Part shown: piece after piece, positions 19,658-57,223 of the stretch
Layout: every line of letters begins with the position of its first letter
Position numbering within the stretch: the first letter of the stretch is position 1
Program-made: the position numbers and the translations under genes
Assembly (NCBI GenBank): GCA_964016885.1
Contig: OZ024742.1
Coordinates: 363,692,001 to 363,756,000, forward strand
Direction of reading: 5' to 3'
Origin: Eledone cirrhosa
Taxonomy: Eukaryota
Length of the DNA: 64,000 nt
Notes under the pieces: generated by a model
Databases searched by the model: none
Seen by the model: the letters and a program-made list of their open reading frames with translations, nothing else
What the model was told of the DNA's origin: nothing

Positions 19658-20076
19658 TATATATATATATATATATATATATATATTTCTGTACATACAC
19701 GCATTTATACTACAAATTTATTTATACACACACACGCACACGCACCCATATATATATATATATATATATATATATATATATATATATATATATATATATA
19801 TATATACACACACGAGCGTGAGCCCCCCCCCCCCTCACCATATATATATATATGTATAAATATAAGTATGTATGTATAAGTACATACATATATGTATACA
19901 GACGTACAGTAGTATATATATACATACAGGCACACATATATATATGCACGTATCGGTTTACCGAACATTTATTATAATGCTCGGTTTGTTCGTTTGTAAA
20001 CAAACAAACAGCCTGGATTACGCCGTACAGTGTTCAGGCAACCACGTCACCTTTTTGTTCAACACTGACACAGGAA

Positions 20077-20117
20077 CGATGTACTAGTTTCAAGCTTATT
20101 AGCTATCGTCAGCACCG
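20077..20117 (-). ncRNA. Minimal type-I hammerhead ribozyme (family A)
   Basis: Reverse complement of 20320-20360. Confidence 0.8.
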
Positions 20118-20319
20118 TGTACCTTTCTGCCAGATGGTTGAACGTCCGAAAGTATATACTTTCCTTATGAAAATTAACGGCTGAGCAGCCTAATTTGCAT
20201 ATCGAGTGAGTTCCGTCGGCCAGGCGCACCGAAAACGATAAATGGAATAGAATGAAACGTTAATTTTCATAAGGAAAGTATATACTTTCGGACGTTCAAC
20301 CATCTGGCAGAAAGGTATA

Positions 20320-20360
20320 CGGTGCTGACGATAGCTAATAAGCTTGAAACTAGTACATCG
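20320..20360 (+). ncRNA. Minimal type-I hammerhead ribozyme (family A)
   Basis: CGGTG-CTGACGA-tAGCT aata AGCTt-GAAA-CTAG-TA-CATCG; GUA site after 20355; palindromic ACTAGT stem III. Confidence 0.8.
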
Positions 20361-21016
20361 TTCCTGTGTCAGTGTTGAACAAAAAGGTGACGTGGTTGCC
20401 TAAACACTGTACGGCGTAATTCAGGCTGTTTGTTTGTTTACAAACGAACAAACCGAGCATTATAATAAATGTTCGGTAAACTGATACGCGCATATATATA
20501 TGTGTGCCTGTATGTATATATATACATGCTACTGTACGTCTGTATACATATATGTATGTACGTATACATACATACTTGCATTTAAGTAAGTGCCGTACTG
20601 AGAGTGAGGAAGGAAATTTCGTTTCATTCTATTCCATGTATAAATATATATATATATATATTTCTGTACACACACATTTATAATACAAATTTATACATGT
20701 ATCTTAAGAGATTTAGCATGTAATTGTATATAACATAAATATTCCAATCATATTGTTGAAACTATCCCCAGGCAAGGCCATGTAGGTTTTTCTACTCATG
20801 TATTAATGTATAAATATATTAATGTATTAATTACTAAATCTGACATGCGTCACAAAATGTTAGATTGGATTCCGTTCTCACACATTCCATAAAAAATTGA
20901 AACATTCTTCTGTTGTTTTCAAAAGTCTTATGGAACGGATATTCTGTTCTAAAGCATTATTATTTTATTTTTTACATTATTATTTTATTTTTTACATTAT
21001 TATTTTATTTTTTACA

Positions 21017-52664: not shown

Positions 52665-53830
52665 CACCCCGGGGTGCCAGTCCTGATTTTTAACAGATGT
52701 CCTCGTCAGACAAAATACATAGGCGATGTATGATTTTTCATGATATGCTGTTAGTCAAACGAGCTGGTTAGATCAGTGAACCACCAAACATATGACAAGA
52801 AAACTCAACATAGGAGGTTACATGAGAATAATGATAGTCGGTTTAAACGTTTTAGAAATTATTTAAAATATGACGTAATTAGATTGGTCAAAAGAATAAA
52901 ACAAAAATTGACGGTTATTCAGTTTATATGTTGCTTATATTCAATTAACGTAGGTATTAAATGAAAGAAATATATTATATCAAAGGAAAAAAAGAAAATT
53001 CTAGGAAACGAAAGCAGTATTATGAAAATATAATAATAAGGGGGAAAAAATTTGGATTACAAATTCGTAATTAAGTTATCTTTCTTTATTTATAATTTGA
53101 TATTGAAATTATATGAGCGGAAAAGTATTTAATAATTAATTTGGATTTTTTTTATATATAACTTAGTACGTTATAATGCTATTCGGTAAATTATTTAGTT
53201 CAAAAGAAAGGAAATTATTACCGTGGTCAAATTTATCAATTCAACAATTTTTTTATTTAAATAGGTAATATATTAATAGAAGGGACTATAAATACTTTGT
53301 GTAACTATTTTAGAAAGAAAAAATGAATACATTATAGCCTAATTTATCAATTTATATTAAATTTAATTCATTCAACTACAACCTACAGTTAAAGTAGATG
53401 AAAAATTGTAACGGAGAAAAATTAGTTCACTTATTTTGTCCTACAATCTAGATTTTCAAAATAAAGACAAAATCGCTTAAACATTATATATAAAGGAATA
53501 ATACCTATTTTGTTATTTTTTATCAAGCTTAAATAAAACTCTAAACGTTTTCGAGAATCTGTGGAGGTAAGATTAATTTTCTGTTATTAATAATATAAAG
53601 AATTTCAATGGTATAGAGGTTACAACTCTTAGAAATGGAAGAATATTTATAAGGTAGAATATTAGAAAGTTTATACCAAGTAAGAGAATATTCCATATTC
53701 TTATTCTTAAGCGACCAAATTAACTCTGATAAAGCTGTACTAAATCTTTTATCTTCTCTCTTGAACGTGTGACTATGGTTATACCACCTTTCTTTCAATT
53801 TAGTTTCATTGTTTATGTTATACATAAAGC
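52665..53830 (-). mobile_element. Penelope-like 3' fragment (GIY-YIG end, 3'UTR, half HHR)
   Basis: LKERWYNHSHTFK..STALSELIWSLK..YSLTW..CNL..E (53541-53825); TATTTTGT-CTGACGA-GG at ~52701-52717. Confidence 0.75.
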
Positions 53831-55872
53831 ATTACACTAGATTCAAAATATATATAATGAAATAAATAGAGATGATATGAAGTATATATCTTTCGTTTAT
53901 TACTATTATTATATATATATATATATATTATTATATATATATATTATATATATATTATATATATATATATATATATATATATATATATATATATATATAT
54001 ATATATATATATATATATATATATATTATTATATATATATATTATATATATATTATATATATATATATATATATATATATATATATATATATATATATAT
54101 ATATATATATATATATTATATATATATATATATATATATTATTATATATATATATTATATATATATATTATATATATATATATATATATATATATATATA
54201 TATATATATATATATATATATATATATACATATATAGATGTACACGAGCACACACACACACTCACACACATATATATATGTGTGTGTGTGTGTTTGTGAT
54301 TGTGTGTTATAGTAATCTTCCAAAAAACCAGTACGATCAATTCTATCTCTGGATATGATCAATAATTCACCCAATTATTTCCCCTTACATAAGACATATT
54401 TCTTTCTTGTAAGACTTCAAGATATTATACATGTTTACTCTTTCCTATCTACAAACTATAAAATGTCATTTTCTTACAATTCCCAAACTTCTCAAACTTC
54501 TCTTACCTTTCTTCCTTTTCTTCTTTGAATCTGATTTTATGGAGACTATTTTATTTACTCAATTGCTAAAATTTCACTATTCTAAGTCTCTCCTCCATCT
54601 TAAACTCGCCCAACCTCCCTACGATCTATTATTGATCCATTCCTTTGATCTTTTCGCCCATCATCACAACTATCCTCCACTAATCCACATTTAAAATGAT
54701 CACTTAGCATTACCGATTATTTACTTTTTATTTTATCATATTTATTTATTCATTTTTCTTTTTACAATTTTGCTTATTCGACATATCAATATTTATTCCA
54801 TTTGAAAGTATATTTTATATATTTTAGATACTATATTTCTTAAATTCTCTCCTATATTAATGCGGCATTTAGAGATGAAGTTCAATCGTATCCATACCAG
54901 TCTCTATGTATACCTATCTCTATCTATCGTACACACACATACACACATATGCACACACACACACACACACACACACACACACACACACACACACACACGC
55001 ACACACACAGACACAGACACAGACACACACACACACACACACACACACACACAGACACACACACACATACACACACACACACACACACACACACACATAT
55101 ATATATATATATTTATTTGAATGTGTATGTGTTCAATACCTGATAATCTTTACTCTATCCTTCGGAGTTACGCCGATACAAAGAAGTTTTGAAATATATA
55201 GAAACACTTTAAAACATACATTCTTATTGCAGAGAAACTGGGGATTTGATATCATTGAGTTAAATGCTCTCAATAATCTTGTTATAATTTCTATTTATCT
55301 TTACCCTCCATTCATGTTTTGTATTCAAACGCATCCCAATGCAATTCTAACTTTCATCCTGTTTGTATCAACAGAAATCTTTACCTGAATTGAACACAAT
55401 GTTGATACAATCAACTCTAGCCCTTCACTACAAACTAGGCCATTGTGACATCAAGAAAACAAATAATGAATTCCTGGTGATATGAGAGAGACTGTAATGT
55501 CACCAGGAAGTTCTGTCTTTTCCTTGCTCTGTCACATTGAAGTGATAAAACCTTAACTAGCTGTTACTTCATGGTCCCAGCAGATACAACTGCAAGTATG
55601 GGAAAACCGACACAAAACCGACACAAAATGTTAATCATTATTTTCATGCATATGTATGTATATATGGTTGTGTTAGGGTGGGTATTTCTATATGTGGCTC
55701 GATGTGAGTGTGACTGTGTGTTTATGTATGTGTGAATGTGTGTGTGAATGTGTGTGTGTGAATGTGTGTGTGTGTTGTGTGTGTATGTATGTGTGTGTGT
55801 TTGAGTCAGAGTGCCAGTGAAATGTCTACCACCCGAGCTCATTTTTTGTAGGTAAGAAACATATGCCAGGCA

Positions 55873-56400
55873 TACATGTTTCAGGGTCATTACCCTTCAT
55901 CAGGGCTGTATACCTCTGCCAGTCTGTTGAACGGTTGACATTATATAGTATTTTCTTAAGGACACATCGGCTGAGTAACCTCATTTGCATAATGGACGAG
56001 TTACGACTGGCCTTGCCGAATATTAGAAATAAAATTAGAATTTCTCAAAGCCATAACTCGTGAAACCGAGAAATAAAATTATCTTTTTATTTTTAATATT
56101 CGGTAAGGCCAGCCGTAACTTGCTTTTTATGCAAATGAGGATACTCAGCCGATGTGAACTTAAGAAAGTACTATATGTTGTCAACCGTCCAACAGATTGG
56201 CAGAGATATACAGTCCTGATGAAGGATAATGACCCTGAAACATGTTGATTGTTCCTCAAAGCCAGTGTTGAACAAACAGGTGACGATCGGTCACCGGCAC
56301 GGTACAGCTTCAAATCGGGCCGTTTGTTTACAAACGAATCGAACATTATTACTGATATTCGATATAACCCATACGTACATATATGTACATGTATGTGTGT
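55873..56400. mobile_element. Retrozyme-like family C, fold-back
   Basis: Minus arm 55873-56035 vs plus arm from ~56085; octamers 55983-55990 and 56129-56136; downstream CAGTGTTGAACAAA.AGGTGACG shared with family A. Confidence 0.8.
56211..56251 (+). ncRNA. Minimal type-I hammerhead (family C); second copy at 55873-55908 on the minus strand
   Basis: CAGTC-CTGATGA-AGGaT aatg AcCCT-GAAA-CATG-TT-GATTG; minus copy has perfect AGGGT/ACCCT and a GUA site. Confidence 0.8.
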
Positions 56401-56434
56401 GTATGTATATATATATATATATATATATTTATAT

Positions 56435-57223
56435 ATATAAAGATCAGAATTAAGAGTATTCCGCAGTTCACTGTAATAATAATAATAGTATTAGCTCAAA
56501 AAAGAATAGAGAATTTTCTTCTGAGCTCAAATGCAAATATCTTACACAAAGAGAAGTGTGTTACACAGTGAGATGTGTGTAAAGAATTATTACAAGTGTG
56601 TTTTACCGTTACTGTATAGAAAACAATATCTACAGGTTTAGCAATTAAATAGAAAAAAACTAAGTCAGAATCAAATCTCTGAGCTCAGAAGAAAATTATC
56701 TATTCTTCTTTGAGCTAATATTATTATTATTACTGTGAACTGCGGAATACTCTTAATTCCGATCTTTATACTTAACGAGCTCCAAATTATTGAGCTAATA
56801 AATTCGAATGGTTGGGCTGCTCTCTCTAGCTTTTTACCCAATCCATGAGAGCCGTTATTTGATGCAAATAACACGTAATTTCGCCCTTCTCTGGGCAGCG
56901 TGTATATTAGCTTTCTCTCTATCCATGAGGTTAGATGTGTGGTGAACAGAATCCACATTTACTGACTGAGGATCCTGTGAACTGTTATACTGCACATTTC
57001 TGTGGTGAAACGAAGCGGGATTCGTATCAGCAAACTTATAGTTATAAGGTTGGTAATTTAAAACTCTAATTCAGAGATTTGATTGTGACTTAGTTGTTTT
57101 CTATTTAATTGCTAAACCTGTAGATATTGTTCTCTATACAGTAACGGTAAAACACACTTGTAATAATTCTTTACACACATCTCACTGTGTAACACACTTC
57201 TCTTTGTGTAAGATATTTGTATT
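56435..57223. mobile_element. Retrozyme-like family E (~544-bp monomer) with inverted, circularly permuted left arm
   Basis: 56438-56528 is inverted to ~56680-56770 and 56529-56682 is inverted to 57071-57223; octamer 56862-56869; HHR 56958-57034. Confidence 0.8.
56958..57034 (+). ncRNA. Type-I hammerhead (family E)
   Basis: TTTaCTGA-CTGAGGA-tCC..GGt-GAAA-CGAA gcggga TTCG-TA-TCAGcAAA. Confidence 0.8.

Follow-up and report, generated by a model that had tools for sequence, protein, structure and literature searches.

The 64,000-nucleotide stretch of Eledone cirrhosa contig OZ024742.1 analysed here (positions 363,692,001 to 363,756,000 of the forward strand; hereafter the window) holds several families of retrozyme repeats in which a perfect octamer, ATGCAAAT, is followed by a TATA-like word and by the catalytic core of a predicted hammerhead ribozyme. 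This octamer-TATA-hammerhead cassette is real, non-random and probably functional, and on balance we consider it likely, from comparison with the small-RNA genes of the same genome, that it acts as an internal RNA polymerase II (Pol II) promoter of the small nuclear RNA (snRNA) and U3 type.

The cassette in the window and across the genome

Perfect octamers occur 12 times in the window (both strands), and behind eight of them (20200, 39375, 41665 and 55990 on the minus strand; 35900, 42119, 56129 and 56862 on the plus strand) the core motif CTGANGA lies 87-104 nt downstream, with TATA-like words beginning at +41 to +45 from the octamer. The density of CTGANGA in the window gives a chance pairing of P=0.010 per octamer, so that about 0.12 would be expected against the eight seen; the arrangement described in a first-pass annotation of this DNA was thus borne out, with correct coordinates. 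The copies, assigned to families A to E, are the following, +1 being the predicted transcription start.

19857-20641, family A insertion: minus arm 19857-20270 with cassette and hammerhead; inverted plus arm 20258-20641, which starts behind the octamer, core at 20325
20193-20200, minus strand, octamer of copy A1, with the 12-mer TATGCAAATTAG: TATA 20153-20158; predicted +1 20128; CUGACGA 20106-20112
35861-36200 (approximate ends), plus strand, family D copy: octamer 35900-35907; GATCAGTC core at +14; TATA-like word 35944-35950; predicted +1 35974; catalytic core 35993-35999, with degenerate GGAAC for GAAAC
39018-39541, minus strand, family A copy A2: octamer 39368-39375; TATA 39328-39333; predicted +1 39303; core 39281-39287, with GAAAT for GAAAC
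41235-41766, minus strand, family B arm B1: octamer 41658-41665; TATA-like word 41618-41623; predicted +1 41593; core 41559-41565; Rfam HH9 match of 32.9 bits
41764-42480, plus strand, family B arm B2, which starts within a ribozyme and spans about 1.5 of the 466-bp monomers: octamer 42119-42126; TATA-like word 42161-42166; predicted +1 42191; core 42219-42225
55874-56043, minus strand, family C arm C1: octamer 55983-55990; TATA 55942-55947; predicted +1 55917; core 55897-55903, behind which the copy is cut off
56076-56420 (approximate end), plus strand, family C arm C2: octamer 56129-56136; TATA 56172-56177; predicted +1 56202; core 56216-56222
56434-57223, family E insertion, made up of a partial arm in inverted orientation (56434-56682) and, on the plus strand, one permuted monomer (56680-57223) about 547 bp long
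56680-57223, plus strand, family E monomer: octamer 56862-56869; TATATT 56903-56908; predicted +1 56933; core 56966-56972; full stem III

No head-to-tail pair of putative promoter-plus-ribozyme units was found among the window copies, which are inverted or partial insertions adjoining microsatellites and which show degenerate cores or ends in the D copy, A2 and C1.

Judged by their sequence, the elements are animal retrozymes of the kind without long terminal repeats (LTRs), that is, monomers that lack any open reading frame (ORF) and carrying a predicted type I hammerhead, in agreement with the identity first proposed for these tandem monomers. Descriptor matches and pairing gave the core, stems I and II and the cleavage triplet in families A-E and in two additional families, G and H, while stem III is short, often palindromic, and full in E. 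The Rfam check suggested earlier scored only family B as a hammerhead (HH9, 27-33 bits, under the 52-bit cut-off), and returned no hammerhead match for C and E. Monomers measure 442 bp (A), 466 bp (B) and 547 bp (E), have a GC content of 0.35-0.38 (retrozyme criterion: below 45-50%) and are predicted to fold extensively as circles. Tandems occur elsewhere in the genome as 442-bp units of A, 466-bp arrays of about 30 units of B and one 547-bp dimer of E; none of C, D, G or H was seen among the loci examined. Neither a meaningful ORF of at least 120 amino acids in the window copies nor an LTR-type organisation in the monomers was found. An ORF for reverse transcriptase (RT) plus GIY-YIG is absent from the unit, and the monomers close on themselves without one, so that these are not autonomous Penelope-like elements. 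Dispersed copies, which are inverted and 5'-truncated insertions, open with a piece that is truncated or inverted and run out into (TA)n, with Penelope-like inverted ends, and this layout matches what the available descriptions give for Penelope-like elements. ORF fragments lie near 5 of 57 family A copies and near 1-3 of 8-22 copies in each cluster of octamer-less hammerheads, with no clear excess of Penelope ORF fragments at the latter relative to family A. The idea that the octamer is a coding remnant of a GIY-YIG end was rejected: the sole case (59070, minus strand) is chance-like and sits in an ORF without a hammerhead, and the family monomers have no ORF.

Across the 3.0-Gb genome, candidates number at least 1,825 in family A and at least 761 in E. 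The octamer-core pattern was matched 36,216 times against 480 in the control, and a stricter subset, which brought out families G and H, 2,620 times against 44. The raw pattern count was discarded as a copy number, being inflated by an abundant ORF resembling that of a long interspersed nuclear element (LINE; RTE-looking), in which ATGCAAAT and CTGATGA stand 107 nt apart by coincidence and which made up, by eye, 15 of the first 100 rows and 2 of 10 matches in random DNA. A rough estimate of the corrected number is 25,000-30,000 copies. When 134 unique octamer-to-core stretches were clustered, A, C and D joined at 74% identity or more, and B, E, G and H stayed separate; in alignments of the same region z was 10-17 for A-C and C-D and 8.5 for A-B, whereas E, with z of at most 1.0, was unalignable (body-to-body z-scores, inflated by TA-rich tails, were left out for E, G and H). 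Five divergent families, with E unalignable to A-D, had been reported at first; with A, C and D in one cluster the window holds about three lineages instead, and only E is unalignable between octamer and core.

A census of hammerheads alone in 100 evenly spaced 10-kb stretches (1.0 Mb) returned 64 matches in 24 clusters, against 4 in the reversed control. Thirteen of these were A, D or G, with a perfect octamer upstream in 9/13, as opposed to 0/51 for the other hammerheads; the cassette is therefore the mark of one superfamily, about a fifth of canonical hammerheads, and not of all. A later search recovered older relatives, one family among them retaining the cassette next to a core that is consistently UUGACAA (U3-A8; 283 matches against 1 in the control). 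This family is a relative of C; the octamer is kept, with TATA at +43 and a YAG word at +73 in four of five copies. A descriptor scan for U3-A8 cores over 1.73 Mb gave 23 matches (4 in the control), none with an octamer, in which three clusters were unlike true hammerhead families. At several family D loci the octamer region is triplicated upstream of the cassette as 33-bp units, with ATGCAAAT or a variant at -66, -33 and 0.

Host small-RNA promoters and the choice of polymerase

The cassette was compared with the promoters of the host genes for U1, U2, U3, U4, U5, U6, U6atac, U11, U12, RNase P, RNase MRP and tRNA-Sec. Seven type-3 genes of RNA polymerase III (Pol III), namely (three U6, U6atac, MRP and two tRNA-Sec) carry the 12-mer TATGSWAATKAG with 0-1 mismatch at -76 to -79 and a TATA box 46-48 nt behind it in all seven; this count leaves out 14 of the 20 U6 loci listed and 7 of 8 U6atac loci, promoter-less and retrocopy-like by eye, and two array copies with the 12-mer displaced by an insertion. 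All seven start with G at the model's first position, and the host Pol III genes end in T5-T10. The promoters of U1, U2, U4, U5, U11, U12 and RNase P match the 12-mer with at least four mismatches in 19/19 cases; U1, U2, U4 and U5 have AATTAA near -89 (15/15 Pol II genes) together with YCAG as a core at -55 to -58 and, in most cases, something like a TATA word near -30. In animals U3 is a Pol II product. The host U3 promoter is a hybrid, as evidenced in 10 of 12 loci by a 12-mer with 1-3 mismatches at -71 to -74, a TATA box 40-42 nt behind it and an A start; it has TCAT at -54/-56, has AATTAA and TCA in common with the Pol II genes, and its 12-mer has T at position 5 and often further changes. 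As to other features of the host genes, the octamer-containing 12-mer abuts the position of the proximal sequence element (PSE) in the Pol III genes, the RNase P promoter has a Pol II-type core, and some of the many promoter-less, retrocopy-like U6 and U6atac copies are fused to repeats, one of them adjoining a family D fragment.

The retrozyme 12-mer, TATGCAAATKAG, lies at -70 to -74 from the inferred +1, and the family consensuses differ from TATGSWAATKAG by 0-1 mismatch in six of seven families (three in E). The octamer-TATA spacing is 40-44 nt in 7/7 retrozyme families, 40-42 in host U3 and 46-48 in the host Pol III genes, a spacing that none of the seven families has. The U3 layout is thus matched in the position of the 12-mer, in the distance to TATA and in the predicted start at the A of a YAG word, which follows the best TATA match by exactly 30 nt in 5/7 families and to within 1 nt of that in 7/7 (chance 0.089 each), and which stands 16-33 nt before the catalytic core and just ahead of stem I. 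A YCAS core occupies -54 to -58 (octamer+16) in 6/7 families and recurs at +16 in 10 of 12 loci of the later search that lay outside the derivation set, six times as ATCAGC. The matrix of the core that host Pol II genes have at -55 to -58, AATCAGTG, likewise scores best at octamer+16, and only A, C and D, along with the added families, score well on it; shuffling gave p=0.0017 for a core at this place over seven families (single copies) and p=0.004-0.0065 over five lineages. Octamers outside the families rarely have such surroundings: T...NAG flanks were found in 6/7 families against 11/68 other octamers, and TATA at +40-49 in 7/7 against 4/68. These data support the proposal that each monomer holds a promoter-like cassette immediately before its ribozyme, with YAG 29-31 nt after TATA in 7/7 families, but not the assignment of this cassette to the immunoglobulin/H2B type, as it is most closely matched by promoters of small-RNA genes of the host itself.

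Pol III is the main competitor, because the 12-mer is perfectly identical to that of U6, MRP and tRNA-Sec and absent from the spliceosomal Pol II genes. The cassette would then be a U6-like type-3 promoter with shortened spacing, from which leaky read-through of T runs yields monomers; copies of A, B, C, D and G mostly lack a T4 run in the first 190 nt after the core, their T4-T6 runs cluster near the next cassette, and schistosome repeats use Pol III according to the available text of PMC2220036 and PMC6765202. However, 190 nt without T4 are expected by chance in about one case in three (our estimate), the octamer-TATA distance is 4-6 nt shorter than in all seven Pol III genes, the predicted start is A and not G, and the T5-T7 runs of B, E, G and H would halt Pol III before the second ribozyme. 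On the transcribed strand T7 or longer occurs in 13 of 18 copies of E, T6 or longer in 8 of 13 of H, T5 in 8 of 8 of B and T6 in 6 of 22 of G, lengths that equal those of the host terminators. Given the U3-like spacing, the TCAG core and these T5-T7 runs, we favour Pol II transcription of the snRNA/U3 type and regard the Pol III account as unlikely.

The octamer near -70 and TATA at -30 also recall the layout of immunoglobulin promoters, and E has only the octamer, TATA and start word, with the AATTAA box missing. This could point to an ordinary mRNA-type octamer-TATA promoter (immunoglobulin/H2B-like) used by a POU factor without SNAPc, possibly in particular tissues. Since both the TCAG core and the extended 12-mer are in line with the host small-RNA genes, and the animal retrozymes tested were expressed in all tissues examined, according to the accessible text of PMC7761336, we allow this account only a slender chance.

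A further view would deny the words any promoter role and take them as inherited remnants or as features of the RNA, such as a hairpin arm or a protein site on the circle, with transcription by read-through from host genes. The octamer is indeed one arm of a predicted hairpin in 7/7 family folds, the families share ancestry, the octamer is missing from 51 of the 64 hammerheads in random DNA, and read-through is what a 2020 review proposes (PMC7761336, available text). Yet the partner strand of the hairpin varies between families while the octamer stays constant, three or four spaced elements keep the geometry of host promoters in the otherwise unalignable E, G and H, and RNA structure gives no reason for a match to host DNA promoters, making this view, in our estimate, quite improbable.

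Returning to a Pol II promoter of the snRNA/U3 type, several observations weigh against it. The hairpin just mentioned is one. Conservation is another: within family A the octamer scores 0.98 against 0.93-0.96 for its flanks in a biased sample, and the 19 variable places in 228 avoid the octamer and TATA without significance (about 0.2), so that the expected conservation beyond the flanks appears marginally in A and not in the variable sites; within-family conservation is uninformative here, the copies being too young or pre-selected. The AATTAA box is absent near -89 in 7/7 families (H has one at -101), E fits least well, lacking both the YCAS core and the T...NAG flanks, and B, G and H are near zero on the core matrix. 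Outside the retrozymes the exact 12-mer precedes only host Pol III genes, and ungapped identity behind the 12-mer favours U3 relative to U6 only in A and H. In family A the T runs reach no more than T4, and Pol III may therefore act there. Pol II is itself only the presumed polymerase of host U3, whose 3' flanks show a Pol II-type 3' box in 1 of 12 loci, one T7 end and no regular T run. The p-values above are optimistic, as the octamer was a search requirement for most families and most are related by descent.

Proposed propagation and related systems

We propose that SNAPc and TBP, perhaps with a POU factor on the octamer, would initiate transcription at the A of the YAG word, after which the first ribozyme would cleave off a short leader and the polymerase would read on across the next cassette as far as the second ribozyme. 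The freed monomer, with the putative promoter at its 3' end, may then circularise and be copied over more than one turn by a Penelope-type reverse transcriptase; copying past one full turn would place the promoter again ahead of the ribozyme in new insertions. The initial suggestion that a unit-length RNA would re-encode its own predicted promoter is supported. Single-unit insertions, which most of those in the window are, could fire and yet be unable to release a monomer. More tentatively, and with more doubt than confidence, the lineage may have captured the U3-type promoter of the host and be keeping it under selection, with an octamer-TATA distance of about 42 as opposed to about 47 setting, in this animal, the choice between Pol II and Pol III and the Pol II spacing permitting transcription through T runs. 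An upstream-type promoter is normally lost on retroposition, and processing from ribozyme to ribozyme would be a way to carry it along.

The first-pass annotation regarded such a module as undescribed, which is contradicted by two precedents: inside newt satellite 2 lies an snRNA promoter used by Pol II (Coats, Zhang and Epstein 1994, as cited in PMC2220036; Pol II also in PMC6765202), and the schistosome satellite has a Pol III promoter (PMC2220036, PMC6765202). Like newt satellite 2, as there described, the present elements are tandem hammerhead monomers of a few hundred base pairs with a putative internal snRNA-type promoter for Pol II; unlike it, they occur in an invertebrate host and in many families, with the octamer abutting a PSE-like core and with a TATA word, and their promoter is a prediction from sequence. 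The newt promoter is said to consist of an octamer plus a PSE and was reportedly tested in oocytes. As in the schistosome Sm-alpha repeat, cleavage would leave the promoter of the present elements 3' in the monomer, so that only tandem copies propagate (PMC6765202, PMC2220036), and the self-promoting logic is that already drawn for the schistosome repeats (PMC6765202); the Sm-alpha promoter, however, is a Pol III promoter resembling that of short interspersed nuclear elements, and an octamer-TATA cassette is not mentioned in the available text of either paper.

In being tandem, low in GC and ORF-less, with a type I hammerhead and with dispersed as well as arrayed copies, the monomers agree with the animal non-LTR retrozymes as portrayed in the accessible parts of Cervera and de la Pena 2020 (PMC7229834), PMC7761336 and Li, Clavereau and Pollet 2026, for which Penelope-like mobilisation, as envisaged here, has been proposed; at 442-547 bp the present monomers are longer than the known ones in those accounts. 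The 2020 review states, in its accessible text, that retrozymes seem to lack promoters or conserved motifs (PMC7761336), and a built-in promoter would contradict its promoter-less read-through view. The pseudo-LTRs (pLTRs) of Penelope-like elements likewise combine a promoter and a hammerhead in a repeat and show partial tandems, inverted 5'-truncated copies, (TA)n targets and a short palindromic stem III (PMC8557442, PMC6765202, as far as their available text goes), but unlike those elements the present ones have no ORF. The host U3, U6, U6atac, MRP and tRNA-Sec promoters share the 12-mer with the cassette (exactly for the Pol III genes), and U3 also the spacing, the TCA core and the A start; the cassette differs from the host small-RNA promoters in lacking the AATTAA box and in standing inside a mobile unit rather than outside a gene. 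Nothing on this cassette was found in the accessible text of PMC8557442, PMC10886601, PMC6309819 and PMC2114352, and the main text of Li, Clavereau and Pollet 2026 (bioRxiv 10.64898/2026.07.22.740005) has no match for promoter, octamer, snRNA or octopus. Our literature search, which left most subscription papers outside, found no paper on this cassette in a mollusc or on a U3-like layout.

If the more tentative reading of a captured U3-type promoter is true, then together with newt satellite 2 a built-in snRNA-type promoter would be the general explanation of the constitutive, abundant circular RNAs of animal retrozymes. What makes the transcription question testable is that one start nucleotide is predicted, that three or four motifs can be mutated and that tens of thousands of natural copies exist, with the host U3 and U6 promoters as built-in controls. 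The host layout itself, in which the octamer abuts the PSE and the spacing differs between U3 and U6, would help guide RNA expression in this animal group.

Other features of the window

A hammerhead without the octamer at 43066 is followed, up to 45131 on the plus strand, by a frameshifted Penelope-like RT ORF, a candidate for the helper type; as the octamer is missing there, the cassette is not a general feature of pLTRs here. Further octamer-less hammerhead families lie at 50524 (minus) and 50702 (plus), 51108 (minus) and 51264 (plus), 35740 (minus) and 2812 (minus), several as back-to-back inverted pairs, and a family with CUGAUGA...GAAAC that lacks a canonical stem II lies at 34589 (minus), 46074 (plus), 47056 (minus) and 47193 (plus). 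GIY-YIG-like pieces with a CxC...CPL motif were noted at 304-780 (plus) and 59027-59410 (minus; Pfam GIY-YIG E=0.03). ORFs split over three frames at 9037-12232 (plus) resemble by eye the protease, RT, RNase H and integrase of a Gypsy-type LTR retrotransposon, and a tRNA-like Rfam match of 41.3 bits at 35325-35395 (minus) lies within a locally duplicated stretch.

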